Shown here piece after piece: positions 5,099-45,068 of a stretch of DNA of 64,000 nt. The stretch lies in contig OZ237741.1 of the NCBI GenBank assembly GCA_965178125.1, forward strand, positions 1 to 64,000, written 5' to 3'. Source of the DNA: Bilabrum cf. latius (lineage: Eukaryota). Position numbers and translations under genes: made by a program. Numbering within the stretch: position 1 is the first letter of the stretch; every line of letters starts with the position of its first letter. A model generated the notes under the pieces. That model had not been told where the DNA came from and searched no databases. It was given only the letters and a program-made list of their open reading frames with translations.

Positions 5099-5813
5099 CC
5101 CTAACCCTAACCCTAACCCTACCCTAACCCTAACCCTAACCCTAACCCTAACCCTAACCCTAACCCTAACCCTAACCCTAACCCTAACCCTAACCCTAAC
5201 CCTAACCCTAACCCTAACCCTAACCCTAACCCTAACCCTAACCCTAACCCTAACCCTAACCCTAACCCTAACCCTAACCCTAACCCTAACCCTAACCCTA
5301 ACCCTAACCCTAACCCTAACCCTAACCCTAACCCTAACCCTAACCCTAACCCTAACCCTAACCCTAACCCTAACCCTAACCCTAACCCTAACCCTAACCC
5401 TAACCCTAACCCTAACCCTAACCCTAACCCTAACCCTAACCCTAACCCTAACCCTAACCCTAACCCTAACCCTAACCCTAACCCTAACCCTAACCCTAAC
5501 CCTAACCCTAACCCTAACCCTAACCCTAACCCTAACCCTAACCCTAACCCTAACCCTAACCCTAACCCTAACCCTAACCCTAACCCTAACCCTAACCCTA
5601 ACCCTAACCCTAACCCTAACCCTAACCCTAACCCTAACCCTAACCCTAACCCTAACCCTAACCCTAACCCTAACCCTAACCCTAACCCTAACCCTAACCC
5701 TAACCCTAACCCTAACCCTAACCCTAACCCTAACCCTAACCCTAACCCTAACCCTAACCCTAACCCTAACCCTAACCCTAACCCTAACCCTAACCCTACC
5801 CTAACCCCCCTAA
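5097..5813. repeat. Telomeric repeat tract (CCCTAA)n, ~0.7 kb, left-chromosome-end orientation
   Basis: Nearly perfect CCCTAA array with a variant unit near each end. Confidence 0.99.
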
Positions 5814-6355
5814 AGACTGTAAGGGTGGCCATGAGACAGAGCGCTGGATGGGGGTGTGGCCGGACCTGGATGGAGACTGCAAGGGTGGTCATGAGACAGA
5901 GCGCTGGATGGGGGTGTGGCCGGACCTGGATGGAGACTGCAAGGGTGGTCATGAGACAGAGCGCTGGATGGGGGTGTGGCCGGACCTGGATGGAGACTGC
6001 AAGGGTGGTCATGAGACAGAGCGCTGGATGGGGGTGTGGCCGGACCTGGATGGAGACTGCAAGGGTGGTCATGAGACAGAGCGCTGGATGGGGGTGTGGC
6101 CGGACCTGGATGGAGACTGCAAGGGTGGTCATGAGACAGAGCGCTGGATGGGGGTGTGGCCGGACCTGGATGGAGACTGCAAGGGTGGTCATGAGACAGA
6201 GCGCCGGATGGGGGTGTGGCCGGACCTGGATGGAGACTGCAAAGGTGGTCATGAGACAGAGCGCCGGATGGGGGTGTGGCCGGACCTGGATGGAGACTAC
6301 AAAGGTAATGGATGGAGACTGCAAGGGTGATGGATGGAGACTGCAAGGGTGATGG
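5814..6355. repeat. Subtelomeric 60-bp tandem repeat (~8 units) decaying into 22-bp subunits
   Basis: Consecutive 60-nt lines are identical or near-identical; the array abuts the telomeric tract. Confidence 0.96.
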
Positions 6356-14023: not shown

Positions 14024-14400
14024 GGCATAGAGGCATAGAGGCATAGAGGCATAGAGGCATAGAGGCATAGAGGCATAGAGGCATAGAGGCATAGAGGCAT
14101 AGAGGCATAGAGGCATAGAGGCATAGAGGCATAGAGGCATAGAGGCATAGAGGCATAGAGGCATAGAGGCATAGAGGCATAGAGGCATAGAGGCATAGAG
14201 GCATAGAGGCATAGAGGCATAGAGGCATAGAGGCATAGAGGCATAGAGGCATAGAGGCATAGAGGCATAGTGGCATAGTGGCAGTGGCAGTGGCGGTCGG
14301 TGGCAGTGGCAGTGGCAGTGGCAGTGGGTGGCAGTGGCAGTCACAAACCAGATGGCAGTGGCAGTGGCAGTGGCAGTGGGTGGCAGTGGCAGTGGCAGTC
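14024..14400. repeat. (GGCATAGA)n, ~31 copies, followed by degenerate (GTGGCA)n
   Basis: Directly visible. Confidence 0.97.
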
Positions 14401-14530
14401 ACAAACCAGAAACAAACGCGGCTGCACGCCTCATCTACCAGCTGCATGTTTACGTGGTTGGCCGCGATCGAGCCGATCTGCCGGCCCTTTTTCGGTAAAA
14501 TGCAACAGCGAAATCGGAGCAAAAACGATT

Positions 14531-14603
14531 CACCCCCTGCGGGTCTCGATCCCGCGGCCTAGCGATTAAGAGTCGCTCGCTCTACCGACTGAGCTAAGAG
14601 GGC
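14531..14603 (-). tRNA. tRNA-Lys(CTT), intact, 73 nt
   Basis: GCCCTCT TA GCTC AGTCGGTA GAGC G AGCGA CT CTT AA TCGCT AGGCC GCGGG ATCGAGA CCCGC AGGGGGT G folds as a cloverleaf; TTTTT lies 5 nt downstream. The T-loop has A54. Confidence 0.92.
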
Positions 14604-15519
14604 TTGTGCTTCACCGGATAATTCATAATATCTAGTAATAAAGTCTGTTCAAGTTTGTATGAATCATGAGCTTTCTCGAAGGAGTAGTATCATTTCTGTC
14701 TGTATGCGGACCAAGCACTTGATTAATCTCGACTTTTACCTGATTACACGATGAAATACTCTTCATTATGTTATGTTGCTTGCTGGTGGATTGCATGTAA
14801 TTCGGCGACAGCTGGTGCTTGAAAGTGAGAAGTAGCTGGTTCGATCAGCAACATGCGCGATACGTCGCAGTGCCATCATAGTAGACGGAGTCAGCTTAGG
14901 ATTTGGGTTAGGGTTAATCGGTCTCTAGTGCGCTATATTGCCTTCTATGACCACTACATTGCTGTGGCCTGTGCAGGAAGTGGCAGTTTCAAGACGATCC
15001 ATCGCGACGCGATCTTGTGTGCCCAGAGTCCCGGACGGCGCGCAGTTTGATTCATCTGCATGTGTCAATGCTACGGTAGCTTGGATACGGGCTCAGATGA
15101 AGCTGCCACCATCGGAGCGAAGCGTGCACATTGATGTGTATTGGCCTATGCTCCATACGTCAACGTCACCGATTACCCTGCTGCCGCACAGTCCCGGGCA
15201 GCAGCGGACGGGACAGTCTCACGTTAGCTGCTGTTTACTTTGAGGCTTTACTACTGCACATTCTGAGATTTCCAACGTGTCAACCTCGTTCCACGGTCAA
15301 GGTTGCTTCCGTTCTCCTGTGAGCCAGACACCAGCTTTATTGGCAATTAGAAAGGAATTCTTACAGTGGAAGATGGCCACTCTATACTTGCTGACACCGC
15401 TTGCACATCACAGAGCTCGGTTCAGTGCGGTAGTGCGTATCGATTGACAATTGGGCAGATTGCTGCAGGGCGACTGTACATGTAGTCCAGTGTTGCAGTG
15501 TTGCAGTGTTGCAGTGCCT

Positions 15520-15808
15520 GTGGTCCGGGAGGGGCAGTGCTGCAGGGGGCAAGTGGTCCGGGAGGGGCAGTGCTGCAGGGGGCAAGTGGTCCGGGAGGGG
15601 CAGTGCTGCAGGGGGCAAGTGGTCCGGGAGGGGCAGTGCTGCAGGGGGCAAGTGGTCCGGGAGGGGCAGTGCTGCAGGGGGCAAGTGGTCCGGGAGGGGC
15701 AGTGCTGCAGGGGGCAAGTGGTCCGGGAGGGGCAGTGCTGCAGGGGGCAAGTGGTCCGGGAGGGGCAGTGCTGCAGGGGGCAAGTGGTCCGGGAGGGGCA
15801 GTGCTGTA
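15520..15808. repeat. 33-bp minisatellite (~9 units), preceded by one solitary copy of the 103-bp repeat (15424-15520)
   Basis: GTGGTCCGGGAGGGGCAGTGCTGCAGGGGGCAA tandem array. Confidence 0.95.
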
Positions 15809-16348
15809 GTGCATGTTGATCGATGTACTTGGACATCAAGATCAAAGCGACGGGGAGCAGAGGTGAGCCGGAAGACGAGGCGGGCGCAGGAGGACAGGAG
15901 ATGGAGAGGAACAAGAGGGGGACACCGGCACAGGTGACGATAGTGCGGTGTCAATGGTTTAGAACACAACTGGACGGAGAGGGTTCCAGGTGCCAGGTAC
16001 ATGGGAGACGCGAGTTGCAGCGGGCTGCATGGCCAGCCGCGCACAGAAGGCCAACAGGTGGGTGGATGGACGGTGCGCATGGCAGGTCGGCCAGGACCTG
16101 TTCGTGCAAGCTGAGAAGATAGGGTCAAGGTGGCGATGCAGGGAGCAGCGCGCACGTACCCTAGGGCGGGGAGCGGGGACGGAAAGCCATGCAGCAACGA
16201 GGCCAGTCGACTTGCATTCGGAAAGTGGTGTGTACATTCGTCGTATCCAAGCTTAACCACATTCGGGTGGGCTGCTGAGCAACCAGTCGGTCGGAGTCCG
16301 CGGGACCTGGGACAGGAATTTTTTATTTGAATTGGGGCCAGTGTGGTT

Positions 16349-18065
16349 GTGGTCCAGGGCGGGAGTGCGGTAGTGCATATCGATTGACGATTGGGCAGAT
16401 TGCTGCAGGGCGACTGTACATGTAGTCCAGTGTTGCAGTGTTGCAGTGCCTGTGGTCCAGGGCGGGAGTGAGGTAGTGCATATCGATTGACGATTGGGCA
16501 GATTGCTGCAGGGCGACTGTACATGTAGTCCAGTGTTGCAGTGTTGCAGTGTTGCAGCGTTGCAGTGTTGCAGTGCCTGTGGTCCAGGGCGGGAGTGAGG
16601 TAGTGCATATCGATTGACGATTGGGCAGATTGCTGCAGGGCGACTGTACATGTAGTCCAGTGTTGCAGTGTTGCAGTGTTGCAGTGCCTGTGGTCCAGGG
16701 CGGGAGTGAGGTAGTGCATATCGATTGACGATTGGGCAGATTGCTGCAGGGCGACTGTACACGTAGTCCAGTGTTGCAGTGTTGCAGTGCCTGTGGTCCA
16801 GGGCGGGAGTGAGGTAGTGCATATCGATTGACGATTGGGCAGATTGCTGCAGGGCGACTGTACATGTAGTCCAGTGTTGCAGTGTTGCAGTGCCTGTGGT
16901 CCAGGGCGGGAGTGAGGTAGTGCATATCGATTGACGATTGGGCAGATTGCTGCAGGGCGACTGTACATGTAGTCCAGTGTTGCAGTGTTGCAGTGTTGCA
17001 GTGCCTGTGGTCCAGGGCGGGAGTGAGGTAGTGCATATCGATTGACGATTGGGCAGATTGCTGCAGGGCGACTGTACATGTAGTCCAGTGTTGCAGTGTT
17101 GCAGTGCCTGTGGTCCAGGGCGGGAGTGAGGTAGTGCATATCGATTGACGATTGGGCAGATTGCTGCAGGGCGACTGTACATGTAGTCCAGTGTTGCAGT
17201 GTTGCAGTGTTGCAGTGCCTGTGGTCCAGGGCGGGAGTGAGGTAGTGCATATCGATTGACGATTGGGCAGATTGCTGCAGGGCGACTGTACACGTAGTCC
17301 AGTGTTGCAGTGTTGCAGTGCCTGTGGTCCAGGGCGGGAGTGAGGTAGTGCATATCGATTGACGATTGGGCAGATTGCTGCAGGGCGACTGTACATGTAG
17401 TCCAGTGTTGCAGTGTTGCAGTGTTGCAGTGCCTGTGGTCCAGGGCGGGAGTGAGGTAGTGCATATCGATTGACGATTGGGCAGATTGCTGCAGGGCGAC
17501 TGTACACGTAGTCCAGTGTTGCAGTGTTGCAGTGCCTGTGGTCCAGGGCGGGAGTGAGGTAGTGCATATCGATTGACGATTGGGCAGATTGCTGCAGGGC
17601 GACTGTACATGAAGTCCAGTGTTGCAGTGTTGCAGTGCCTGTGGTCCAGGGCGGGAGTGAGGTAGTGCATATCGATTGACGATTGGGCAGATTGCTGCAG
17701 GGCGACTGTACATGTAGTCCAGTGTTGCAGTGTTGCAGTGTTGCAGCGTTGCAGTGCCTGTGGTCCAGGGCGGGAGTGAGGTAGTGCATATCGATTGACG
17801 ATTGGGCAGATTGCTGCAGGGCGACTGTACATGTAGTCCAGTGTTGCAGTGTTGCAGTGCCTGTGGTCCAGGGCGGGAGTGAGGTAGTGCATATCGATTG
17901 ACGATTGGGCAGATTGCTGCAGGGCGACTGTACACGTAGTCCAGTGTTGCAGTGTTGCAGTGCCTGTGGTCCAGGGCGGGAGTGAGGTATTGCATATCGA
18001 TTGACGATTGGGCAGATTGCTGCAGGGCGACTGTACATGTAGTCCAGTGTTGCAGTGTTGCAGTG
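16349..18065. repeat. 103-127 bp tandem repeat (~16 units) with a variable number of internal GTGTTGCA 8-mers
   Basis: Constant ~87-bp body plus 2-5 copies of the 8-mer per unit. Confidence 0.96.
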
Positions 18066-18120
18066 GAGAGCGGTAGCAATTTATATTGTATGGGTACACA
18101 GGCAATCAGGTTGTCTAAGA

Positions 18121-21100
18121 TTAATGCCACAACTCGCGGGGTGGCGAGGCTGCGGTGGTCGCTGGGCCAGCAGCAGTTCTGTGGACATTTCTTGCGCAAG
18201 TACTTTGGCCCTCAGGCGTCCGGCGCTGCTGCAACCCGAGAAATGCGGTCATTCGCATCTGACCAGGACGTCCAGCAGCAATCTACGTCTTTGACTTGCG
18301 GCTTGTCTTTGTTTGGTTGGGGGGCGGGACTGCAGGTGTATCGTGCGTCCCCATGTTGCTTCTGCTTCGTGGAACTGTATCGGCCGATCCGCCAACTCGC
18401 CTACGCTTTGCTGGGGGCTACTCCCTGTCACGACGTGGAGGTTGGAAGCCTTCTCTTGACTGTCCAGTCCCCTTAGTAGGAGCTTGCATGTTTGATCGAT
18501 GTTTGTCGGATTCTTGGCGATGCATGGACGACGCCGCTGGTCCGCCACCACCGCTAGTCTGAAGCATGTCGCCACCCCTGGCCATTTGCGCGGCCATCTG
18601 CGCTGGAGTAGCCCGAGCCATGCCGAGCGCGGTGCCACCCTGGGCTTGCTGCTGGGGGGCAGTGCGTCCGGTCACCCCACCCAGTATCTGCAGGGCACTG
18701 CGACGTTTGCGGCTCTTCCCGGCTGAGCTCGCGGAACCTTTGCTCGACAGGTTGCTGCTCGCAGACGCAGGTCCGCTGGCGTACTGCAGTTGGCGGGCGT
18801 GGGGCAAGCAGGCACCCCTTTGCTGGTCGTCGGACTCTTGGCGATGCATGGACGACGCCGCTGGTCCGCCACCACCGCTAGTCTGAAGCATGTCGCCACC
18901 CCTGGCCATTTGCGCGGCCATCTGCGCTGGAGTAGCCCGAGCCATGCCGAGCGCGGTGCCGCCCTGGGCTTGCTGCTGGGGGGCAGTGCGTCCGGTCACC
19001 CCACCCAGTATCTGCAGGGCACTGCGACGTTTGCGGCTCTTCCCGGCTGAGCTCGCGGAACCGTCAGGGGGCTCATTACCGGAATCTCGGGCGAGCAGGC
19101 AGCATAAACGGACTGCCCTTTACCGGCTCTTCATTACTCCTGGCATCATTAAAACATGCTATAATTAATCGTAGCTGAATATTAATGAGCTTGATCTCAT
19201 TTAATGGGTGTTAATATTCGTTTGACTTTGTAAATTTACGGTAAGGCGAGGCTAACTTTTGGTGCTGCTTCGTAGCCAAGCGTCGGTCACCTTCAACGTG
19301 TCAATTGAGCTCATTTCGATAATTCAAGCAGCTTTATGGGTAAATATACATAGATTCTGGCTTGTCGTGGTATCCGTCAACCCATTGATATTCCATAAGT
19401 ACCGTATTTCCTGAGCAGGCAAGGCTGGACAAGAGTTGCAAAACCTCGCTATAGCAAGGCACATGTCCTGGGCGAATTGAACCTTATGGTATCAATTTTC
19501 ATTAAGTACTTATTAGTCTTGCGGGGTATGAGCATGTGCAGCATACTTTTTCTGGCACTGGCACCCTGGTAAGCTATCGACCAGTGGTTCGCTTGTTGCG
19601 TCAGCCTCCGGGCTTATTTGAAGCATAACGGCTGAAGCAAAGCCTGCAACACATATAATACTCATATTGGCGTAAGCATGCAGTGAGTGCGGTCAGGAGA
19701 TGTCAAGCAAGGTTGCCACGGACTTGGCGGAGGGTTGAGCAGTTGTGGAAGGGAATTGGAGCATGGCAAGCCCCACGACCCACAGCCCTGTGTATGCCCC
19801 GGTAGCGTAACCACAATCTCTTTGACATATTTACTGCCATTTGAGCATGACTGTCTTTGCGGCTTTGGTGTATGAGGCTGCACGGCAGGGGCTCGGCAAC
19901 TGCGGGCTCAGGCAGCTACTGCTCATGACACCACCACTGTTCAGACCAAAAGGCAAGGCTATGGATCGCGTGGCTAGCAGAGGAACGCTGATGACATTTT
20001 ATGGTGTTAAGTGTTGAGAGCACCGGTCCAAATCTCAGTATAGCATAGGAGGCCCAACCACACGGAAGAGCTGTGACACGTCGCGGGGGGCACCTTGGGG
20101 GGCAGGTCCATGCATCAGATATAGTACGGTTCTGATAGTCCCGCCTTACCAGATGGTTGAAGCCATAGTATTGCTGAATTAGAGGGGTTGTCGTCTGTTG
20201 ATCGTCCCATGAAATGGTCGTGCAACCCTGAGAAGGAGGCGGACGTGCCAAGCCTGCTAGCAACTGCGCGGGGGGCTGCAAGCTCTCAATTAGCAATAAA
20301 CAGGCTAAAGTAGCTACTTGCAGTCTTAAATAGTAACAGATGATGTCTGTGGGGCCTGCTAGGTGTTGTAAGTTAATATGGGCCGTTGTGGCAGCTGGGA
20401 CGCAGCTGTATTCAGCCTGGGGTCGAGGCAAACTAGGGCCCTCATGTAGAGTCGGAGGAAACTAGAACATGCACTGTGCAACCGCAGCAGTTCAACAAGG
20501 TCCTTTGCATTAGATTACTGCTACGGAAATTCATCTTAGGTCTCATGTAAAGGATGTATGCACACTATCTTTGGACAGTGCAAGTTGCTTGCCAGTCACG
20601 CTGCATCAGACGAATAACTGGATCCACATGCCCATAAAGCTCATCGTTAATACTTCATATATAAATATCACAAAATTGAGAGTATTAACCAGCAGGTATG
20701 CCGAACACGCATTGCAGGCAGAAAAAACTACAACCAGACCATGCAGCCCTCTGGCAGAAACCGGGAGGCACCAGGCTCGTGGTTGCGAGCAGCAAGCACG
20801 TGTGGATCTACAATGCTCTTTTGTACGGATAACATACTGTAGCCGCCTGATGAGGCCAATGGGTGCACAGGAAATAGGATGCAGGTGCCTCGAAAATTGC
20901 TCACAGCGGCCCGCCCACGCTCTTCACCAAACCCAGGCATCAATAACTGCAATTCGTGCAATTTCAGACCGCCATTAGTATAATTATAAATAGATTTAGT
21001 GTGAGAGAGAAGATCATGCCGATTCATCGAGGAATGAAAGCATGAACGCTATCTGAAATATATCCTCCTATGCGACCTGCCGGGGCGAATTTCGTGAATC

Positions 21101-24100
21101 CCGTGCTCGGTGGCCGACAGCTTGAACTGCACCCCCTGTATCTTCGTCAATAAGTACGTTGCAGACTTGAAATTTGCACAAAATACTATTAATGAAGTAA
21201 ATATCATATTACATTAGTTATTATTCTCTTTAATGGTTTTCAATGGTTGGAACACGGCCCCTGAAAATAGGCCCAATCGGCGATTTTTATTCCGGTAATG
21301 AGCCCCCTGACGGAACCTTTGCTCGACAGGTTGCTGCTCGCAGACGCAGGTCCGCTGGCGTACTGCAGTTGGCGGGCGTGGGGCAAGCAGGCACCCCTTT
21401 GCTGGTCGTCGGACTCTTGGCGATGCATGGACGACGCCGCTGGTCCGCCACCACCGCTAGTCTGAAGCATGTCGCCACCCCTGGCCATTTGCGCGGCCAT
21501 CTGCGCTGGAGTAGCCCGAGCCATGCCGAGCGCGGTGCCGCCCTGGGCTTGCTGCTGGGGGGCAGTGCGTCTGGTCATCATCTGCATGATGTCCGGATGC
21601 CTGCGGCTCTTCCCGGCTGAGCTCGCGGAACCTTTGCTCGACAGGTTGCTGCTCGCAGTCGCAGGTCCGCTGGCGCTCTGCAGAGTCTCCTTGAGTGAGT
21701 CAGGTAGGTGAAGCTCGGGATTCAAACTTGTCGCATACGCTGAAATTTTCAGCGCCCGCCCAGCCGGGAGTGCAAAAACAGCTCTGTACTCGTCTAGTTT
21801 AGCAGCTGCGTTTGAAGCCGCAACATGTGTAGCTGAAGCCTCCGGCATGCACAAAGAAAGCCGCATGAGCACGCATGTCCCGCCTGCGAAACCGGTCCCC
21901 GCTACGAGTGCATGCAGTGCAAGGGCGTTAGCTGCCCCCTACGCCCTGAGGTTCACTCCATCGTGAATATCACGCGCATTATTGGGTCCAGCCAGGCTAA
22001 CCTTGCCATGCTTGGTAAGGCGGCCGATGCTCGCGATCTGCGGCTTCCCAGTTTGCATGGGCGACGCTGATGCCGAAGATCGTGCCGCCACTGCCGTCGC
22101 CGCCGAAGATGATGAGTCGCGCTCGCTGGAAGGTAGTGATGTAACGCGCAGGTCAATAACCTGCACCTATACGGTCTATTGCAGCGCCGCGCGGGGTACA
22201 GCGGGTCGTTCGAGGCAGAGCTGGTCCGGGATGTCCTCGACGTTGGTTGACACGCTGACAGAAGACGAGGAGGCAGCGGTCTGTGGCTGCGATGCATCTG
22301 AGCTTGCAGCCGATGAGGCAGCGGTCTGTGGCTGCGATGCATCGGAGCTTGCAGCCGATGGGGCAACGGTCTGTGGCTGCGATGCATCGGAGCTTGCAGC
22401 CGATGAGGCAACGGTCTGTGGCTGCGATGCATCGGAGCTTGCAGCCGATGACGCAGCATTGGCCGCATCAGGCTGCATTGGTGCCTTAACAATACCTGCG
22501 ATCTGCTTGATCGTCATGCGGATGATATTGCCTGCTCGATCCTTACTCTTTGCGTCGACCTCTTGGAAGACTGCGTTGGCCAGGACAAGCCTGGAGTTGA
22601 AGAACTTGTCAGTGGTAACCGTCTGAGCGCTTCTAGGATGCAATACCTCCTACGTGTGTCCGTGGAGCTGCCGTAGCGCATCGGTAGCTCGATCGCGGGG
22701 GTAGTCCTTACTTGCAACCTCCGCAACAGTCTTTGGCAGCGTGGCACAAGCCCAAGTACCTGCACAAATGTGTTGGAACTGGGATGTCATGTCAAAGCCT
22801 GCGATCACCTTGCGAACAGTGTTCTGGGGGGACTTCTTAATGCTGTCCCTCAGCCAACTGACAGTGTTGTTGCCCGACTTGCCATTGGTGATAATGGCGT
22901 GGAGGTTGCGCACTGCCTCGTAGGCCGGCTGAGTCCAGGCATCCCCAGCCATGCATTTCGAGAGGATTGCAGCTTCCTCGACGCTGAGCACATCTTCATC
23001 AGCCAAACTGTGATTTAGACTGGCCTGGAAGTGCAATGCGATGCGCTGTGATACCGAAGGTGGCTTGGCCCCCGTCCCTCTCGCCCGTATCAGCTTGCTG
23101 ACCAGAGTCAAGAGAATAGCGACGCGCTCGACGATCTCATGCGCATCTGCGCCCCTGCTACTCGAGGCTGTGGCGGCACCAGGGTTAGAAGTGGCAAGCG
23201 CTGGCCGGACTGCCGTGCTTCGCTTCTTCAGCTGCATCGCAGCCTGCAGGTCTTCCCCGATTTTTCGTTGCAGGGCGGGTCGCGATGTCAGCATCTGAAC
23301 CTACGCCTCCCCAGCCTACGATTGGTGAAGCAAGCAGTGGGACAGGGCGGCTCGACCGGTACTATGGGAGTAGTGCCCATCTGTGCTGGCGCGCACCATA
23401 CTGAGCACCATGTGTCTCCCGCCTTCCTCCCACGCTGTTGGTTCTGGGTATCCGGGGCTCCAGCTCTTGCCCCCCATACCAACAAGAGGTCCGCTCGAGA
23501 GGAAAGCTTGGCTAATGGCGTCTCTGGCTGACTCTTGGTATAGGCATTGCATGGCATCCGTGTGATCGGAGCGGGCAATGATGACGCCGAGAGCCTCATT
23601 GCCAATGCGCGTCGCGAGCAGGGCACGGCCAATCCGGCTCGATGAGTCCACGCTGCACAAGGACGTACCCCGGGCTCCGACCCTGAAGGAGTTCATTGGA
23701 AGGGCATCACTCGTCTCATGATCATCAGTGTCGTCGTTTGGCGTTGCCTCGCCGATACTGTTCACCGCTTGTGTGAAGCCTTTGATTGGGTCGACCATAC
23801 CCTCAGGGTCCCAGAAGATTCGAGCACCAGCGAAGCACATACCAGCTTTGTCTTGACACGCACCAATCGCTCGAATAAGAGCAGAGCCAGCCTGAACGCA
23901 TCGGTTCCACGATGAATCAAGTGCTACGTGTGGTTCAACGGCATTTCTGCTTTCTACCGTTTGCTTGCCTCGCGCAGCGTTTGACGACCGGACTCCGCTC
24001 AGCATTGCATGTGCATCGCACAAGCAGCTCTCAAGCAGCTCACGGAACAGATGATGGCACGGACTGGCATGAGTTCCAGTGCGCCCAGCTCGGTTGACAA

Positions 24101-26279
24101 GTCTGAGCAGCATTGGATGCTGCGTGCTCACACGCACTTCCTTGGGAGTGTCGTTGCAGGCCTGCCCGACAACGGCTACGAGCTGGTGCTTCTGACTTCC
24201 AGAAAACGCTTCACGTGCTTTTTCAATGGAGTCTAATGTCTCCACGGAGACAATGCTGGACCTTGCACCCCCGGCTGTCGCAGACTTAGCCGAGCCGTCA
24301 GACTTGCTGGCGTGGCTCATTCCCAGTGGGTTGAACGCTGCAGTAGCAGAGGAACCTGGTTGCCTGGGCCGCGAGACAATCGTTGCACTGGTACTCGGTG
24401 CCGACTCCTTGCCAATTACTCGGGAAAGAGTTGTGCTGGAATTGCTAACGTGATCTACTAGCGACTTGAACAGCTCACGCATTGCACCAGCTGTGGCGAC
24501 ATCTTGGCGCATCCCACGACCCATAAAGTCATCGTGCGCTGCTACACGGCACGGAGGCAAGCCCTCTGCCGTTGAAACCTGAACGTTACGAACCGCGTGC
24601 TCGCAAGGTGGAGCGCCGCTAGTGCTTGATGGTGCAGTAGAGGATGAAGCCGCTGCTAGCCGACCGCCTCGACCGCTGGTCTCGGCCACTGAGCACTGGA
24701 CTACTTGAGCACACAAACGTCTAAGCTCGTGCCTCCGAGGCTGAATTGTCTTACAGACGCTGTTCATGTTTGCCATCATGCTTGCCTTTCCGGTCTTCTC
24801 GACGTGCGCGGCCGGACCTCTCTGCAGCACCATTGCCGGCCTGCCTGTTTCGGAAGGGAGCTTTCCGTCTTGGCCTGCTCGTGATGCAGATCCTGCAGAT
24901 TCAATCCCTGAGATTTGGCGTGGTTGACCCATAGCTGTCCAAGCCGCGGACTCTGGAGCATCGGACGGAGGGTTGATGGTCAGGCATCGGCCTGCTGCGG
25001 CCTCTGCCCTCTGGAGCGCACCGTCTGAGGTCAGGCGCTCACCGTTGGCGTACCAGTCCCACCCTCGGGCTGTAGGATGGTGTGCAGAGAGTGCTGCCTG
25101 TTGCTGTTGGCCCGTGGCTAGTAGCATGTTGTGAATCAAGGCACCAGCAGCAGAAGCTGGTTCGGCCTCGGTGCTGCTGCGCACTGCCAAAGCCCTACTC
25201 GCCCTGTGCACGTTTGAGCTCTGCGTGCTCATACCCACTTCTGTTGTTTGAGTATTTGGCCTCCAACATAGACCCCTTACTCGAAGTTGTCCTGTCGATG
25301 CACTCATCTTCATGCTTCGGGCAACCGCGGTAGCGGCGAGATCCTCGCTGGATGGGACTGGCTAGCCGCTTGCGGCTGCTGCTTGGCCGACTTGGCTCGT
25401 TGAACTGGCGTATTGCCTGATCTACTGCAGGGATTGTACCAAGCCGTCGTTTAAGGGTAGCACCATTGCTGCCTGCAAGTAAACACCAGACCCCCTTCCG
25501 TCGATTGCTGTGTAGTCCTCGAGCTTGATTTGGAACGGATGCTGATGGGCCGCAGTGCTGCCCTTGGAAGCGACTACGGCAAAAGCCTATTCGCGAATCC
25601 GTGCCATTGCATAGACAGCTGCAGCTCCACGGGCTGCATGTACATGCAGCGCCCACATTGCCTGTCCCATTTCTCTGCTGACACGGCCGAGGCGTCGTAG
25701 GCTCGAGAGGGCCCTTGCACAGCCAGGTGTGCCAAAGTGTAGCTCTACGTGCACGGCTCTCACGCCATATGTGGAGTTGACTGGTCCCATTCGAATATGG
25801 ACGCTGCTGCCAAATTCTGAGCAGACCTTCAGTGGTGTCGTTCGGCTCTGTAGCGAAGCTGCCAGCTCGGCCGCTTGGACTGGGTCGATGTCGGCTGCAC
25901 GTGTTGAGGCAGCCTTGTCATCGCTGACCCCAGAGTCTACTTCTCCAGGCTGTTCAGCCAAGCTTGTGCCGAACGGGCTGTGCTGGCCGGTGGTCCTTTG
26001 ATCGTTTGTGAGCTAGCTGGAGCGCGCCATTCGACTTCCGGGCACCTGCTCGGAACTGCCCAGCAGTGACGCCGCGACAGAGATTGAGCCCTTGAGGGGA
26101 TGCTATGACTCTTTAATAGATGAAGACACCCTCGAAGCAGTCACAGGCTATATACTTGGGCTTGTGCGGGCATTCAACCCTCCCCTGATTGATGATGTGT
26201 GCGCAGCCTGTGTCGACCACGTCGAAGCGGACGACGAGAAAGTTGGCTACATCGCTCCCCCCTGTGAGGTCATAGGCAT
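18121..26279 (-). CDS. Giant intronless orphan gene (~1967 aa reconstructed with TAG=Gln), interrupted by a TIR element at 19061-21313; as it stands it terminates at TGA 21240 (~1679 aa)
   Basis: ORFs 25587-25961, 23316-25313, 22650-23294, 22176-22643, 21939-22166 and 21240-21872 are in one frame, broken only by TAG, and open back to ATG 26279. Removing 2255 bp restores the frame into ORF 18418-18999, which reads on to TAA 18121. Confidence 0.75.
19061..21313. mobile_element. 2.25-kb terminal-inverted-repeat element, apparently non-autonomous or decayed
   Basis: 25-bp perfect TIR CCGTCAGGGGGCTCATTACCGGAAT (19061-19085; reverse complement at 21289-21313). The empty site CGGAACCTTT is seen in sister repeat units. 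TSD is AA, or GGAACC if the TIR is 23 bp. Confidence 0.88.
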
Positions 26280-26311
26280 ACTGTAGAGGGATGTTCTTGT
26301 TATTTGTGGCA

Positions 26312-27289
26312 GGCCTGACGATTAAGAGTCGTCCGCTCTACCGACTGAGCTAAGAGGGCTTGTGGTCATCTATCCGTCACACCATATCCAAATGAAGCTT
26401 GCAGCGCTGATGCTGCCATGCACTGTCGATGTCTTCGCATCGATTCAGAAGGAGTAACGGCCAACGGTAGCGTATTTTGGGCTTTATTTGAAGCTGCTGG
26501 AATAGGAAAACGTCTGCTGCACTTCTCAACTTCAAGCCAGCACCTGCTCTTCAATCGGATCGCAGTAGTTCCGCTACGCCACCGAGACGGCCGCGGCGCC
26601 ACCAGATTCAACTTTCGCGAACCAAGTCCCGACAGCAGCTGACCGCCCTCGCGCGACTTCGGAAACAAGCGGCTAGATCGCTCGCATTCCTCCAGTGCAT
26701 TACGGCGGAATGCGCCGCCTGGCCCGACGAGTTGCTGTGCATGGTGTGTGACAGTGGCGCTCTCGGCTCGGCCGGGTAGCTGGGGCGACTTCGGGCTTGA
26801 CACGGTGCCGCGAGCAAGGGTTTGCGCCAGGCCAGACTCTTGTCTCGCTAGTTTCTGTGCCAGGAAGCGAGCAGGCTCCCGGCTCCGGCGGCGGCGAATT
26901 CGTGCTTCGGCAGCGCGTGGCTCCGTCGGTCGGCAGCGACGGGAGCGCGGTCGTCCCGCTGCCCAGGCGGGACTCGTCTGGCGCTCTCGGCTTCGACGAG
27001 ATCCGATTCAAGCTGCAGGATGACAGCGTCGGAGATCTGCTCGCGCGAGCCGCGGAGCGGCTCGGGGTGGAGGCTGGCAGTTGCGCGGTGCGGTTCGCCT
27101 CGGACGGGTCTCGCGTGGCCCGGAGCTTGCCGCTTCGCCGGCTGCTGCAGGTGGGCTGGAGGCTGGCAGCGGCAGACACGAGCACTGAGTTCACGCCCGC
27201 CCTCCACGTGATCGTCGGCGGGGAGGACGGCTTAGGCGACACATCAGCCCGGCGGCTGCCCGCCACGTTCACCACCGCCGAGCTGCCTC
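26312..27289 (+). pseudogene. 978-bp near-identical duplicate of 28051-29028: tRNA-Lys 5' half (26312-26359, minus strand), MCU upstream region and truncated MCU 5' end
   Basis: Offset 1739 bp; CGA>TGA nonsense change at 26749 (codon 14); homology stops at 27289. Confidence 0.92.
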
Positions 27290-27887
27290 AACCCGCGGGT
27301 GGTCAGACTAGTGGTTACACTCCCTGAAACTGCCCGCGGGACCACACTGTCTGGACAATGTTGATTTTAGTATTGTGCCCGGGTCATAGTTCTGCTAGCA
27401 TGATGTTAATAGCACGATACGGTAGGACGTAGGCGTTCGGGATTAGTTGTGGTAGCGTGAAGTCCGGAAACGCTCCATTGGCCAAGTGGGGCCTACAGCA
27501 TAATGAGTTTGTGGCTTCCCTTGTTCGCTCCGGACCCCCCGATGGTGATCCACGCCCCCATTACGCCCCTTTAAGCAGCCAATTGAATCAGTTTCGGAGG
27601 AATGTGTCACGTTTCGACAATTTAGATATCATTAGGGGATACTCAGCAGGGCCTCTGGCTGCACCGCTCCGGATGGCGTGCTGAACAGCTGCTGGGCTCG
27701 ATTCTGAAGCCACTAAGAGGAGTGGGTGGTAGAAAAGCCGCTGATAGCAATTTGAATGAGTAGTCGGTGCTAAGGGAGAGGATTTCAGGGCTGTCGGCGG
27801 ACACTTATTTGCAGTTTTAGCAGGAGATGTCCGCCTTCGTGCTCGGCAACTTCCGTGCAGTGGCACAGTTTCATACCGCTCTCACCA

Positions 27888-27937
27888 GCGGCCTGACGAT
27901 TAAGAGTCGTCCGCTCTACCGACTGAGCTAAGAGGGC
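27888..27937 (-). pseudogene. tRNA-Lys(CTT) 5' half, second copy (part of a 161-bp tandem duplication)
   Basis: GCCCTCTTAGCTCAGTCGGTAGAGCGGACGACTCTTAATCGTCAGGCCGC followed by non-tRNA sequence. Confidence 0.9.
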
Positions 27938-28048
27938 TTGTGGTCATCTATCCGTCACACCATATCCAAACGAAGCTTGCAGCGCTGATGTCCGCCTTCG
28001 TGCTCAGCGACTTCCGTGCAGTGGCACAGTTTCATACCGCTCTCACCA

Positions 28049-28098
28049 GCGGCCTGACGATTAAGAGTCGTCCGCTCTACCGACTGAGCTAAGAGGGC
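28049..28098 (-). pseudogene. tRNA-Lys(CTT) 5' half, third copy, contiguous with the intact MCU locus
   Basis: Same 50-nt sequence; it overlaps the 3' half at 13849-13862 by 14 bp. Confidence 0.9.
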
Positions 28099-28448
28099 TT
28101 GTGGTCATCTACCCGTTACACCATATCCAAATGAAGCTTGCAGCGCTGATGCTGCCATGCACTGTCGATGTCTTCGCATCGATTCAGAAGGAGTAACGGC
28201 CAACGGTAGCGTATTTTGGGCTTTATTTGAAGCTGCTGGAATAGGAAAACGTCTGCTGCACTTCTCAACTTCAAGCCAGCACCTGCTCTTCAATCGGATC
28301 GCAGTAGTTCCGCTACGCCACCGAGACGGCCGCGGCGCCACCAGATTCAACTTTCGCGAACCAAGTCCCGACAGCAGCTGACCGCCCTCGCGCGACTTCG
28401 GAAACAAGCGGCTAGATCGCTCGCATTCCTCCAGTGCATTACGGCGGA

Positions 28449-30023
28449 ATGCGCCGCCTGGCCCGACGAGTTGCTGTGCATGGTGTGCGACAGTGGCGCT
28501 CTCGGCTCGGCCGGGTAGCTGGGGCGACTTCGGGCTTGACACGGTGCCGCGAGCAAGGGTTTGCGCCAGGCCAGACTCTTGTCTCGCTAGTTTCTGTGCC
28601 AGGAAGCGAGCAGGCTCCCGGCTCCGGCGGCGGCGAATTCGTGCTTCGGCAGCGCGTGGCTCCGTCGGTCGGCAGCGACGGGAGCGCGGTCGTCCCGCTG
28701 CCCAGGCGGGACTCGTCTGGCGCTCTCGGCTTCGACGAGATCCGATTCAAGCTGCAGGATGACAGCGTCGGAGATCTGCTCGCGCGAGCCGCGGAGCGGC
28801 TCGGGGTGGAGGCTGGCAGTTGCGCGGTGCGGTTCGCCTCGGACGGGTCTCGCGTGGCCCGGAGCTTGCCGCTTCGCCGGCTGCTGCAGGTGGGCTGGAG
28901 GCTGGCAGCGGCAGACACGAGCACTGAGTTCACGCCCGCCCTCCACGTGATCGTCGGCGGGGAGGACGGCTTAGGCGACACATCAGCCCGGCGGCTGCCC
29001 GCCACGTTCACCACCGCCGAGCTGCCTCGGGGCTCGGGTGCAGCGCTGGGCTCGATTCGGGGATCAGTGGGAGGAGTGGACGGCCGCGGCGGGGAGGCGG
29101 TGGATGGCGAGCTGCATGCGTATTCGGTGCTAAGGGAGAGGCTTGCGGATCTGTCGGCGGACTCGCACTCGTTGCAGGTGTCTGCCTTCACGGACATGGT
29201 GCGGGCGGTGGCGAGGGAGCATTCGCTCGGGGGCATGCACGGGTCCAGCGCGTCAGCTGGTTCCGCCAGTGGGGTGGAGATCGGGGGGGAGTCCACGGAG
29301 GCCGATGTTCTGCTTGCACAGAGGTGGCTCGAGTGGCTGCAGGCAGAGGGGGTGGTCTACCACAGGCCTCTCTCGAGGGACGATGCCCTGCGGTCCACGC
29401 TCTTCCTCGTGCACGACGAGGCCGAGGTGGTGGTGGCGGGGGGAGGGGAGACGGAGGGAGGGAGGCTGGAGCAGCTGCTGACGGGTGCTCTGGACGTGGA
29501 GGGGCGGGCCCTGCAGGGTAAGATCGACGCCAAGCGAGACGAGCAGCGAGCGCTGGTGGATCAGCTGCAGGGCATGGATGAGCTGGCCGCCTCTCTGGAC
29601 CAGCAGGCCGCGAGAGACCTGTGGCTGCGGGCCCTGGGGACGGGGGGCTTCCTGGTGGCGCAGTATGCCTTCATCTTCCAGCAGGTGTACGTGACCTCCT
29701 GGGACGTGATGGAGCCCATCTGCTACTTTCTGTCCACGGCGTACTCGGTGCTCTTCTTCGGGTTCTTCCTGGCCACCAAGAGGGAGCCGCAGCATGGGAA
29801 CATCTGGCAGCACTTCTTGCAGAAGAGGAGAGCCAAGCTGCTGGAGGCAGCCACTAAAATGACCGTGGAGGCCTTCGAGGCGGAGCGCGAGTCCCTCCAG
29901 CGGCAGATCATGACCCTGCGGACGGAGGAGCAGCTGCTGGACGCGCGGGAGCAGGGGGCCATCCGGGCGGCCGAGGCTATTCGGGCGGCCGAAGACAGGC
30001 TCGGCACGCGAGATTAGAGCTAA
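28449..30023 (+). CDS. MCU: Mitochondrial calcium uniporter
   Basis: Coiled coil-TM-SWDVMEPICYF-TM-coiled coil; Arg-rich presequence. TAG 30015 is followed by AGC TAA, so the true stop is probably TAA 30021-30023. Confidence 0.9.
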
Positions 30024-32734: not shown

Positions 32735-35700
32735 ATGAGCACATGGGTTATATTGTGCCCGCCTCTTCGTTACACGGCGGACCCCAAAACGTCGACGCGA
32801 CTTGCCCGAGGACTTGATCCGGATGCTCAGCCAGCAGGCAGTCGGGCGAGCCGCTCCGCTCCGCACGTACTGAGCGGTCACGATATGTATGATATGATTA
32901 TCGGGGGCATTCCGGCGGTGAGTCGAGGCGCTCTGCTGGCAAAGTTGCGCTAGCGTGATTCTCGCACATCAATTTTTGCTGAGCTAAACGCCCTATTTCT
33001 ATTCTGCAGCAAGACCCCAGTGGCCAGCAAAGCAGCGTTCCTTCCATAGCACATGTTGCTCTTCATCCTCGTTTGCACTGGATGGTCACGGACGGGCTGC
33101 TCTCGCCCGGCACGATGCTCAGCAGTATTGCTTTGAGCCAAGGGCCGCAGCTACACATTGAGGTAGAAGGTCAACGGGGCGCATCTGCAGCACTTGCACC
33201 GCCACATCTTCACGAAAGCATTGCCAGCCCAGGCTGGACTCGGCAGATTGTCATAGACCTGAAGGTTGTTGCAAGCAATCCGGTCGCGCCGGCCGAGCCA
33301 GCTGCCCATGCGCCGGGGGACAGCCCCAAGCCAATCGCTAGCTCGAGCTCTGGGTTGCTTGATGGCCCCATCGGGGTGCAGCTGGAGGCCTGCACTGCCC
33401 GGCTACCCCCCCGGGCCCAGGCCATGTACTCCCCGGAGGTGCTCAAGTTGGCGCTCGCTGGGGCCAAGCCTCTCACGGCCCGCCGCAGGTTCTATTTGGA
33501 GCCGTGGAGGGGGTCAGAAGCAGCTGAGCTGCTCCCCGGGATGCACCGTGCTGCACTCGGCTATCTTGAGACCGTCGGTCTGCTGGCCCACATGCGGCCC
33601 GAGGCAGCCGCGGCTGTGCTACGACATCTGCCCACTCTTGCAGACTACTCTGCACGCGGTCGTGCCCGGAAAGGCCGGACGCCCATGTCGCAGCACAACC
33701 AGAGGGTCAGTATGCTGCACGGTCTGTCGTCAGCTGCGGCCCTGAGTGTCCCCGCGACGGTGGAAGGGGGCCATGACTCCTTAGGCAATGGGAACAAAGC
33801 TGGGAGCAGCTCCGGCAAGAGCACCACCTCGAGCAGTGCCGCGTCTGCGGGTGCAGGACACACTGAGCAAGGCGGGTCACCCCATGGGGGATCTTCTTCC
33901 AGTTTTCATCTGCAATGTGGCCGGGCCTCGCTCGCATGCCTGTGGCTGCACCGCAGCTGCGTCTATGCCGGCAATGTGAAGGGCAGGGCGGCTGCAAATG
34001 CCGAGGCAGAGGAATGGGATGAAGGCCAGGGCAAGCAGGCGACAGGTGGGGCGAGCGAAAGGAACGGCACAGGCAGCGGCAGCAGCGGCTCTGCAGGGCG
34101 TGCCTCGAACGCTCTTTCTGGTGCCGCTGCGGTGGCCAGAGTATGCGGGGACGGGCGCTCCCAGGCGGGGGCCCTCCTCGGGTGCATCGCTGCCTCGGAT
34201 CCATACGGGCTCATGGGCGAGAGAAGCCCCTCCCCCGGGGGCATGGGGGCATCTGTGCTCAGGCGTCTGGCTGCATAGGGGGTCAGGCTGCTTGCGGTGC
34301 ACGACTGGCAGCACGTGCTCGTGGGTCGGCTGTGCGCGGTGGGCCCGCTGCGGTGCCTGGAGAAGCCGGACGAGACGGGCGTGATGGCCTGGGCTCAGAC
34401 CATTCGCATCCAGGACCACACGGGAGAGCTGGATGTCGTGCTGTGGAACGGGGCAGCCACGCGGTACGCCCGCGCCTTGCGATCCACCCCGCTTGGCACG
34501 TGTGTCGCCGTGGCAGGTGCCCGCCTTAGCGAGTGGAACGGTGTGCCACGGGCCAACCTGAACGCGTGGAGGGTCCCGGAGGCGGGAGACAGCGCATGGT
34601 TGGCGCCTGGCAAGGATGGCGGCAGCATCGTGCAGCTGCTGCTGCCGCCCGCTCTTGAGGCCACCGGGTACCTGGCCCCTCGGCTGGCACCGCAGTGGGC
34701 CTACCTGTGCCGGACTCGCCCTGACGAGCTCGGCCTGGACGGGGAGGAGGAAGGAGACCAGGCGCTCATGTCGCAGGAGGGGAGAGCCTAGGGAGCAAGG
34801 GCACGCGCTGGCTCCAAGCGCAGTCGAGAGCAGACCAGTGCGGGCGCGGGCCGACTCGCAGCCGCTGCCGTGCTGCAGGTGGCGGCTCGTCTGCCGACCC
34901 CAGCCCTGCGATTCGCGTCGATCAACGAGGCGCGGGCATCCAAGACGGGGGCCTGCATCGACTTCGCGGGCGTGGTAATGCGGGCAGGTGCGCCAGAGTC
35001 CGTCGCAGTCGGCGTGCCTCCAGTGGGCGCAGCAGAAGGGCGAGGCGCGGAGGGGGAAGGCTCCGCTGCGGATCGGCAGGCAGCTTCAGCAATGCTAGTG
35101 CATCAGTTCTCCGAGAGCAGCTTCTTGCTGGGACACCGTAGCAGCAGCAGCGCTGTAGGTTCCTTCAGGGCTGGGCGCGCCGGCGCCCTCGGGTCCGATT
35201 CGGCGGCTGTGGCCGGGACGCAGGCCTTTGACGCGGCGGAGGCGGGGGCAGCCCGCGAGAGGGGCTTCGCTGCTGCTGGTTCCGCCGTGGAGGACGGGTC
35301 GTCCCAGTCCGAAGACTTGGGGGCGCAGGGGCCCTTCGTGACGGTGCAGCGCGTGCTGGTGGCGCAGACGAGGCAGATGGCCCCCGTGGAGATGGTGGTG
35401 GACCTGGCCTGCCTGCAGGCGGGGGAGAGAGGGGACGGGCGGGTGTCGATCCAGGCGGGCGATGCCATCTGCGCGACTCGCGTTGAAGTGCTTGTCATGG
35501 GTAGCCTCGGGACCGGGCAGCAAGACGCTTTGGGTGACAGCCGTCGAGCCATCGTGGTGACTGGTCCCCTCTCCCAGGTGCTGTGCAGTCCTAGGCGGCT
35601 GCTGGAGACAGAGGGATACTCTGGCGACTCGAGGAGCGATGCTTGGCCCAACGTGTGCCCCCGCTCCATGTCCGCTCACGTGCTGCCGCTCATGTAGCCC

Positions 35701-37806
35701 GAGGCCCGCAAGGACCCCCGCTTGACCACCGAGCGGCTCTGGTGCGCGCTCGAGGCCCTGCACGCGGCATCGCTGGCCTCGCCATTCGCGCTGCAGGACT
35801 GGGACAGGGCGCGCGATGGCGGAGACTCCCCTGGCATGATCCCGGCAGTACGGGGCGCGCTCGCCGGCCCATGTGCGGCACGGCTGTGGGCGGCGCAGCT
35901 GAGGCGAAAGGAGTGGCCGGGGGCAGGAGATGCGGCAGTGAAGCCCAGCGCGCGCCGGTGCGCACGGCTGTGTCTGGCCTGGCTCTTCTCCGAGGTGACC
36001 CGTGCCCGTGAGCTGCACGACCTCATGGGCGAGGACAGCGGTCAAAGGGGTGCTGCGGCGGCTGGCAGTGTGGGGGACGGCGAGGTCGACAACGGCAAGC
36101 GGCCCAGGAGGCAAGAGGCAGGGAGTGCAGCCCATGGTGATAGTCAAGTGACACCACTGCCGGCGCAGTCAAAAGACCTCATGGCTGGCGTGCAACCTGC
36201 GGATGCAGCCGTTGTGCATGTAGACCATCCGCGGGCGCTTGCCGGTGCCCGTGCTGCCGAGGCTGGCCTGGCCCTGGCGCTGAGTCCCACCTCCAGCACC
36301 GGCGGGGCACTCATGCAGCAGCTGCTAGACGTGCCCGCGGTCCCGGCCCACGCCCTACCCGAGCTGGGAGTCAGGGACGCCGAGGTAGCCCGTGTGCTGG
36401 CGCAGCAGTCCGTCCCCGGCAGCGTGGGCAGGCTGTTGCGGAGTCACTGTCCGATCGTGAGCCCGAGGCAGGCGTTGGAGGCTCTTGGGCAGGGGAGGCG
36501 GTGGGTAGGCATGGCGCGCCGGTGCATCGTGGTGGGCATGGGCATGTCTTTAGCAGGAGAGGAGGACGATGGCCTGCTAGTGGTGCGTGTGGAGGAGCAG
36601 GAGAACAAGGAGGAGGCCGAGGCGCGGGAGCTGCTGGCGGAGATCGTGGGGTAGCCCTCTTCCACGTCGGTGCCTCGACCCGTGCCAGCACCCGCCTCCA
36701 TCGCCCTTGAAGTGGAGCACCCAGCGATGCAGGCGACGCTGCGGGACCTGTTGGCTTTTCCCATCGAGGATTCAGAAGGGCCAGCTGCTGGACCCGACGG
36801 GGAAGCGTCCTCGGACAGTGGGGAGGGATCGGATGATGACGACATCGAGACGGTGCCGGAGACTGACGAAGACGAAGACGAAGACGAAGACGAGGATGAG
36901 GACGGCGAGTATGTCGGCGGAGACTCGTCCAGCGATGAGCCACAGCCTTCTAGAGGGCGCCGCAGCAGCCCCCGGCGAGGAGGCAAGCACGCGGCCAGTG
37001 GGGGAGCAGCGGAGGGGGCATCAAGGGGAGACGAGCCGGCAGAGAGTGCGCGGGCCGGTCTCGCTGTGCTGGCCTGTCTGCGCTTCGACGGCGTGAGGGC
37101 GTGGGCGCAGGTGGAGGAGGCATGGAGCGTGCCTTCCGGTGCCGTCCGGCTGCTGCTGGAGGACATGCAGGGGCGCGGGGCGTCCTAGCTCCAGGCCCGC
37201 GTGCCTGGCCTGGGGCTCGGGCAGGGGATTGAGGACGGCGAGCCCGGAGTCAAGCTGCAGCTCGCTGCGGTGCGGCGATCGGGTGGCACGCAAGGCGAAG
37301 GAGAAGGAGAACGGGAGGGGGGAGGAGCAGAGGGGAAGAGATCGGGGGAGGACAGGAGGGGAGAGGGGTCGGCCGAACCCGTGGATCTGCTAGATCGCCT
37401 GAACCTGGATGCTAGGGAACAGAAGAAGAGGGCCCCGGTGCGGTTGCGGGCTGGCAGTCGGTCGAGGTCGAGGCCCGGGCGGAGGGACAAGGACAGGGGG
37501 AGGGGCATGGCTGGGAGGAAGGGCGGGAGAGGGAAACGGGAGGGTAGAGGAAGCGACCCCGTGGATATCCTAGGCCAGCTCGTCCTCGGGGAGGCGGACT
37601 CGAACAGCTCCAGTTCCAGCTCCAGTTCCAGCACCAAGCGGCAGCGGGCAAGGGAGGAGAGCAGGACATCGTCGGGGAGGGGAAGCGGTTCTGGGGCGCG
37701 TAGGAGGGAGACTGGCGGCGTTCTTGAGGGCCTACTACTTGACGATGGCGCATCGAAGGCGACACATCAAGCCAGTGGCATCCTGGATAGGCTCGACTTC
37801 GGCTGA
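32735..37806 (+). CDS. Large multi-OB-fold ssDNA-binding protein, RPA1/RADX-like (needs TAG=Gln; 5' end uncertain)
   Basis: Six ORFs from 33073 to 37806 are in one frame, separated only by TAG; ends TGA. Motifs: YDMIIG..LHPRLHWMV, RFYLEPW, DPYG, IRIQDHTGELDVVLWN, CIDFAGVVMRAG. Confidence 0.6.
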
Positions 37807-44833: not shown

Positions 44834-45068
44834 GAGATGCATTACATCGTTCGTTTTGCGTTCTTGGCACGCCGTAGACCGAACGAAACATGAAGCAGAG
44901 TGATGCATAAACCCAAGTTTGGCCGTCATCTCAAATCCAAAAAGCAGCGTTCATCTATGCGCCCAACAGGCTGCCAGCGATTCCGTTGCGAAACGTACCA
45001 CTCTACTACCCTGAAGCCAGCCCAGCTGCTCTCGTCTTGCCTCGAACGGCCACCGCACGCTGTTCTCA

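Follow-up and report, generated by a model that had tools for sequence, protein, structure and literature searches.

Genes for tRNAs are targeted by bacterial genomic islands and also by elements of some eukaryotes, proteins that dock on PCNA through a PCNA-interacting protein (PIP) box carry the consensus Qxx[LIM]xx[FY][FY], and some superfamilies of terminal inverted repeat (TIR) transposons make short target duplications. These systems, together with the orphan genes of protists and algae, are the closest described counterparts of a large gene on the minus strand of a 64,000-nucleotide (nt) stretch of nuclear DNA from Bilabrum cf. latius (contig OZ237741.1 of assembly GCA_965178125.1), the whole of which we call the window. 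An earlier note on this DNA had described the gene, which reaches from 26279 down to 18121, as an orphan and suggested that its product might serve the mobility or maintenance of an island. Here, we find that it is probably a lineage-restricted nuclear host gene, in which TAG encodes glutamine, for a large and mostly low-complexity protein; the gene has recently been disrupted by a transposon and probably has no part in mobility.

Compared with these systems, the locus shares some features and departs in others. Like the orphan genes of protists and algae, the gene belongs to no Pfam family, its homologs have no hit in the ESM Atlas or to any protein of solved structure, and long parts of it are of low complexity; unlike them, it has three collinear fragments in a relative, at 39-43% identity. 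Its string QMRMTAFL agrees with a PIP box at positions 1 (Q), 4 (M) and 7 (F) and lies near the C-terminus, but has leucine at position 8 and falls outside the present product. The inserted transposon, with its perfect 25-nt TIRs, short duplication, lack of a transposase and several copies, is like other non-autonomous TIR transposons, although its 2.25 kb exceed the usual size of a miniature inverted-repeat transposable element, and its duplication is AA (up to GGAACC) and not the TA of Tc1/mariner. As in tRNA-targeted islands, a whole and a partial tRNA lie in the same orientation ~11.7 kb apart; however, the repeated part is a 5' half that differs at 4 of 48 positions, is present three times and lies within a duplicate of host DNA, with no recombinase in the open reading frames (ORFs) scanned.

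A single long frame with TAG as glutamine

The coding sequence lies in two parts.
21314-26279, minus strand: 5' part, codons 1 to ~1656, with 13 TAG (open frame; homolog fragments align)
18121-19060, minus strand: 3' part, severed by the transposon, open to the TAA at 18121-18123, with 2 TAG (open frame)

Translation table 11 fragments the locus, the biggest piece being 665 amino acids (aa) long (23316-25313, minus strand), whereas with TAG read as glutamine positions 21240-26279 of the minus strand become a single ORF of 1679 aa with 13 TAG codons. Across 21314-26279, the 1655 codons of the coding frame contain 13 TAG and not one TAA or TGA, while each of the remaining five frames contains 25-45 of the latter two; under a base-composition model, the probability of 1655 codons without TAA or TGA is 1.2e-16. 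Excising 2255 nt (19061-21313 plus 2 nt) yields one frame of 1967 aa, with zero TAA or TGA inside its 1967 codons, two further in-frame TAGs in the 3' part (18121-18999) and the TAA at 18121-18123 as its sole stop. In these respects the earlier note was accurate, having described a gene hidden under the standard code, a single frame with at least 13 TAGs, a length of ~1967 aa in frame after removal of the TIR element, and a start 33 bp from the edge of a tRNA similarity: the ATG at 26279 is 33 nt from 26312, the limit of similarity to a tRNA-Lys 5' half. No piece of the gene was found elsewhere within the 64-kb window.

The same code applies to the surrounding genes. ORFs of 1300-2300 codons appear in the window once TAA and TGA are taken as the sole stops, and over the 8233 codons of six host ORFs, among them MCU, SRP72, a P-type ATPase and a WW-domain protein, we counted 37 in-frame TAG, 0 TAA and 0 TGA, with host frames terminating at TGA or TAA. 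The CAA:CAG ratio in these six ORFs (53:318) predicts ~6 in-frame TAA if TAA were also glutamine, and since none occurs the reassignment is limited to TAG. In the ORF at 53679-58706, both of the two TAGs within the repeat KIDEQAKQIDE align to Q of sister copies, an alignment that supports glutamine as the probable reading of TAG. The host is thus a GC-rich (~60%) eukaryote with TAG as glutamine and TAA and TGA as stops. The TAG density of the gene (13 in 1679 codons) resembles that of the host genes. Examples of TAG-bearing host frames are those at 32983-37803, 38030-44830, 45072-49178 and 53679-58706, and a change of TAG alone to glutamine is rare in a eukaryote that, like this one, is GC-rich (~60%), has long ORFs and shows few apparent introns. 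Listings and abstracts on UAG reassignment turned up no GC-rich eukaryote with a TAG-only glutamine code; in PMC5304391, Amoeboaphelidium is cited for a UAR-to-glutamine change, and the rhizarian exLh and Iotanema are that paper's own reassignment cases.

Homologous fragments in a relative

When 1.84 billion representatives were searched exhaustively with HMMER, residues 130-1329 serving as the query, 4 proteins matched at E<=0.001. Three of these, P0001 (282 aa, E 1.1e-46), P0002 (183 aa, E 4.9e-31) and P0003 (105 aa, E 5.3e-14), are nameless proteins from Logan assemblies, and P0002 has a longer cluster mate of 324 aa, P0005. The fourth, P0004, a 1263-aa repeat protein with 11 short matching stretches, was judged from its own sequence to be a low-complexity match and set aside. 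The homologous fragments align to the 1967-aa frame as follows.
Residues 45-310: P0005, identity 112/284
Residues 337-611: P0001, identity 121/279
Residues 862-966: P0003, identity 42/105

The fragments are collinear with the gene at 39-43% identity, and sharply conserved blocks, including HVELHFG, EDYT..DGRGSGVYLQ, LCWRP, AGALI.NMLLATGQ and AWE.GG, alternate with variable linkers. The longest contig listed for P0005, P0001 and P0003 is in each case 3806 nt, and the three are plausibly parts of one gene of a relative that a standard-code gene caller would have split at in-frame TAGs. By the evidence of these alignments, the gene is real and lineage-restricted, seen in one other organism only, and is not a strict orphan. 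The label of orphan in the earlier note therefore stands as far as known families go (none by Pfam), and falls with the three homologous fragments in the relative's contigs.

Searches beyond these fragments returned little. Pfam assigned no family to the gene and nothing to P0005 or P0003, and gave P0001 only a sub-threshold match to DUF3761 (E=0.062). A word-index protein search with the 1679-aa frame against proteins of 923-2939 aa found no match, and the same kind of search with P0001 found only P0001 itself. Among sequences of solved structures P0001 had no match and P0005 only weak ones (best E ~0.1), and the ESM Atlas yielded nothing usable for either. Single-sequence AlphaFold2 models reached a mean predicted local distance difference test (pLDDT) score of 43.0 for P0001 and 41.5 for P0005, too poor for a fold search. 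With P0001 as the query for related loci, 0 of 33 pattern matches were confirmed in metagenome contigs and 0 of 1 in viral contigs.

A recent transposon insertion

The element that divides the gene comprises the following features.
19061-21313, no strand assigned: non-autonomous TIR DNA transposon, 2253 nt, GC 48% (TIRs, flanks and ORF scan)
19061-19085, plus strand: left TIR, CCGTCAGGGGGCTCATTACCGGAAT (inverted-repeat detection)
21289-21313, minus strand: right TIR, perfect complement of the left (inverted-repeat detection)
21240-21313, minus strand: continuation of the frame into the end of the transposon, adding 23 foreign residues, VRGLITGIKIADWAYFQGPCSNH, before a stop (ORF reading)

The 25-nt arms of the inverted repeat (19061-19085 and 21289-21313) are 100% complementary, with 0 matches expected by chance, and the element sits at the first junction of a 324-nt tandem repeat array. 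Its flanks read ...GCTCGCGGAA|CCGTCAGG... and ...CCTGACGG|AACCTTTG..., where the intact sister repeats read GCTCGCGGAACCTTTG, so that the target duplication is 2 nt (AA), or up to 6 nt (GGAACC) with ambiguous bases, and the repeat is otherwise intact. The longest ORFs of the element (262, 239 and 181 aa) contain no Pfam family and hence no transposase domain, which makes the element non-autonomous.

Within the window the element is single-copy. No RNA run was listed as containing the stretch. We aligned to the stretch the contigs of four public runs (X1-X4), whose kind is unknown or probably DNA, and contig depth, which is not a measure of copy number, was higher across the element than across the gene. 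A 2380-nt contig of X1 links the left end of the element, at exactly 19061, to unrelated sequence, X4 has additional loose ends at the element borders, and positions 19431-19588 are present in two versions in each of X1, X2 and X3; these other flanks and double versions indicate that the element occupies several sites. The junction at 19061 is spanned by contigs of X2 (18993-19144) and X3 (18836-19239), and the insertion is therefore common to these near-identical genomes. No contig with the empty-site allele, in which 19060 would be joined to 21316, was listed in any of the four runs (0/4), and contigs drop rare variants. Separately, some versions of the element in X1 and X3 contigs are missing the 178 nt at 19240-19417, which have GT..AG ends on the plus strand; the gap reflects either a deletion in some copies or, should these runs be RNA, an intron.

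Three observations show that the insertion is recent: the two TIRs have not diverged from each other, repeat copies that are 100% identical extend over 267 nt on each side of it, and the severed 3' part remains open across 312 codons. A multi-copy, non-autonomous TIR transposon has thus recently interrupted the gene. In its present state, the frame includes 23 codons of the element before its stop at 21240, giving a 1679-aa product without the last ~310 residues.

Composition, repeats and short motifs

Repeats and motifs in the coding frame are listed here.
22266-22457, minus strand: 45-nt (15-aa) tandem repeat, 4.3 copies, ASSDASQPQT(V/A)ASSA (tandem-repeat detection)
21314-21683, minus strand: first copy of the 324-nt (108-aa) repeat, 5' of the insertion (self-comparison)
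18408-19060, minus strand: copies 2 and 3 of the 324-nt repeat, with the basic cluster SRKRRSA in each (self-comparison)
18394-18417, minus strand: PPAKRRRV, basic cluster like a nuclear localisation signal (NLS), residues 1870-1877 (motif scan)
18238-18261, minus strand: QMRMTAFL, PIP-like string failing the strict consensus, residues 1922-1929 (motif scan)

Overall, the protein is 15% Ala, 13% Ser and 8% Gly, with low complexity over much of its length, a more hydrophobic part at ~700-1270 and a repetitive, basic C-terminal third. Apart from the tandem repeats, no internal domain repeats were detected (best E 0.13). One contig of X3 is short by exactly one 324-nt unit (18511-18836), which is either a copy-number variant or an assembly collapse.

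The repeats (4.3 x 45 nt and three 324-nt copies) and both strings, PPAKRRRV and QMRMTAFL, are where the earlier note had placed them; its reading of QMRMTAFL as PIP-box-like is not supported. The strict consensus has 0 matches in the 1967 aa, as QMRMTAFL, 38 aa before the C-terminus of the full frame, ends in leucine at position 8. The relaxed form used in the earlier note, in which leucine is allowed last, was chosen post hoc; of 2000 shuffled sequences, 3.3% match it and 33% match a pattern that is slightly wider still. The monopartite NLS pattern K-[KR]-x-[KR] is matched by KRRRV at residue 1873, but also by 47% of shuffled sequences; the frame has 3 runs of four K/R where 0.2 would be expected, two of them being copies of one repeat. 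Moreover, PPAKRRRV and QMRMTAFL both lie downstream of the transposon and are cut off in every contig that bridges the site, and are thereby excluded from the present 1679-aa product.

tRNA fragments and the proposed island

The proposed island, at ~14.6-26.3 kb, had been bounded by a complete and a partial tRNA gene.
14531-14603, minus strand: complete tRNA-Lys(CUU), the other island end of the earlier note (ARAGORN, sole tRNA found)
26312-26359, minus strand: 5' half of a truncated tRNA-Lys(CUU), one of three within 2 kb (Rfam and alignment)
26312-27289, plus strand: duplicate of 28051-29028, with the truncated tRNA, the upstream region and the first ~200 MCU codons (self-comparison)

Rfam gave three weak tRNA matches (26256-26359, 27877-27937 and 28038-28098), and the three truncated tRNA-Lys 5' copies (at 26312, 27877 and 28038) have the same upstream flank. 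Two of the three lie in a 161-nt tandem repeat (27826-28151), each unit of which carries a truncated tRNA-Lys, and the third, at 26312, opens a copy of 978 nt that is 99.69% identical to the original (26312-27289 against 28051-29028). The tRNA junction of the earlier note consequently lies at the margin of a locally duplicated host segment and does not separate an island from unique host DNA. A short match of 84% between 27753-27802 and 29113-29162 suggests an older MCU duplicate whose 5' end has since been homogenised.

Compared with the whole tRNA at 14531, the truncated copies are changed at 4 of 48 positions, so that identical direct repeats do not flank the region, and the four differences form two compensatory pairs in the anticodon stem; the truncated copies therefore derive from another tRNA-Lys gene and not from a duplicated attachment site. 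Elsewhere in the contigs of X4, this 5' half is followed by a full tRNA 3' half that matches it. Between the whole tRNA-Lys and the 5' half, which share their orientation ~11.7 kb apart, the part at 14.6-18.1 kb holds only satellites (8, 33 and 103/214 nt). Pfam detected no recombinase in the gene, in the three longest ORFs of the element or in three ORFs at 14.6-18.1 kb, in a scan of ORFs of at least 160 aa: the satellite ORF at 15364-18105 gave only a chance match, and two further ORFs at 14755-15866 gave none.

With no recombinase, transposase or replication domain in these seven ORFs, neither an island mobility or maintenance factor nor a replication-associated protein, as had been proposed, finds support here. 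The earlier note had also taken the use of the host code as a sign of long residence, but this is exactly what a vertically inherited host gene shows.

Origin and role of the gene

The account that we consider probable is that of a lineage-restricted nuclear host gene with a recent transposon insertion. Its ancestral product would have been a protein of ~1967 aa, rich in Ala, Ser, Gly and Gln and mostly of low complexity, with a few conserved blocks (~95-310, 337-611 and 862-966), a more hydrophobic middle (~700-1270) and a repetitive, basic C-terminal third. The gene would have been inherited vertically. The TIR transposon has entered at the first repeat junction of the 108-aa array in the C-terminal part, leaving the present 1679-aa product without its last ~310 residues, which include both noted motifs. 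The neighbouring tRNA half lies in a locally duplicated segment of the MCU 5' region and does not mark an integration site. The basic clusters make a nuclear location possible, and we infer no role in any mobility.

Several points weigh against this account. GC at the first, second and third codon positions of the gene is 0.60/0.56/0.59, against a third-position GC (GC3) of 0.70-0.82 in neighbouring host genes, and its CAA:CAG ratio is 34:55, against 1:26 to 17:62 in those neighbours, and such a deviant codon make-up would also be expected of a foreign, young or weakly selected gene. The gene is set in a repeat-rich stretch of lower GC, and the region upstream of its ATG is a duplicated segment of the MCU 5' region. 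The first 89 codons hold 4 of the 13 TAGs and a tRNA-like remnant overlaps the first codons, so that the true start is uncertain and possibly further downstream. Vertical descent and synteny are presumed, and the role as a large scaffold-type protein, which the product may have or may once have had, is our best guess from composition and basic clusters.

Among the other explanations, we regard it as unlikely that the gene was already decaying or functionless before the insertion, being lineage-specific, either young or dying, and subject to little selection. This would fit the flat GC over codon positions, the dense TAGs at the 5' end, the low complexity over much of the length and the replacement of the upstream region, 33 nt from the ATG, by a duplicate of the neighbouring gene's 5' region; against it stand the zero TAA or TGA in 1967 codons and the blocks conserved in the relative, with E down to 1e-46.

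Rather doubtful, too, is a foreign origin, in which the gene would not be native but the cargo or relic of an element, for instance an endogenous virus or a large transposon, with the code of its host. The codon make-up is unlike that of six neighbouring host genes, the gene is flanked by satellites, a transposon and duplicated segments, and the family is known from two organisms only; yet Pfam finds no viral or mobile-element domain in the gene or its homologs, a search of a viral contig collection with P0001 as the query found no relative, the density of TAG is host-like, and ~40% identity with conserved blocks and variable linkers fits the ordinary divergence of related species.

A nuclear factor that docks on PCNA through a PIP box and serves a tRNA-Lys-integrated island is very improbable: the Q, M and F of QMRMTAFL 38 aa from the C-terminus, the basic clusters (one KRRR and two RKRR), the whole tRNA-Lys and 5' half (14531-14603 and 26312-26359) in one orientation, and GC and GC3 below those of the neighbours speak for it, but the strict PIP box has no match and the looser patterns also turn up in shuffles (3.3%, 33% and, for K[KR]x[KR], 47%), the transposon severs both motifs in every bridging contig, the gene and six other scanned ORFs show no recombinase, transposase or replication domain, the tRNA half occurs three times and borders host DNA duplicated at 99.7% identity, the compensatory differences speak against a duplicated attachment site, and the relative's homologs stand at ~40% identity. 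We give equally little credence to the idea that the lower-GC, repeat-rich DNA at 14.5-26.3 kb is what is left of a novel kind of eukaryotic element directed at tRNA-Lys genes, with the protein as its own factor, held to the replication clamp through a non-canonical PIP-like tail; if true, the local duplications and the transposon came afterwards and obscured its borders.

Neighbouring genes and other repeats

The host genes named by Pfam in the window are the following.
28416-30014, plus strand: mitochondrial calcium uniporter (MCU)
45072-49178, minus strand: P-type cation ATPase, intronless, 1369 codons, 1 TAG
51746-53038, plus strand: WW-domain protein, first of two
53679-58706, plus strand: WW-domain protein, second of two
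60557-62899, minus strand: SRP72

The plus strand antisense to the P-type ATPase gene is equally open (45015-49178, 1341 codons). The ORF at 38030-44830, with 2267 codons, 14 TAG and long near-identical internal repeats, belongs to no Pfam family and is a large unnamed host protein.

Tandem arrays occur in two places.
4000-5098: satellite, 155 nt, 7 copies
5097-5807: interstitial telomere-type array, (AACCCT)x119
5814-6306: satellite, 60 nt, 8 copies
Within 14024-18065: (GGCATAGA)x32
15520-15806: 33-nt array
16348-18065: 103/214/428-nt satellite

The first three form a subtelomere-like structure within the window (4000-6306). The others belong to dense tandem repeats between the tRNA-Lys gene and the stop of the 1967-aa frame (14024-18065), and all three minus-strand frames stay open through the satellite at 16348-18065.

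Implications

The case cautions against proposing mobile islands on evidence as weak as a short motif with a tRNA fragment close by. Because it truncates the C-terminus naturally, the insertion could be used to probe the role of the repeat-rich tail. A reassigned stop conceals long genes from standard gene callers: table 11 breaks the copy in the window into short ORFs, and the relative's copy sits in public protein collections as three short fragments only. The gene adds a conserved, unnamed family to a lineage with a rare reassignment of TAG alone, and the genetic code of this host is a more remarkable feature of the window than the 1967-aa gene, which is itself ordinary.

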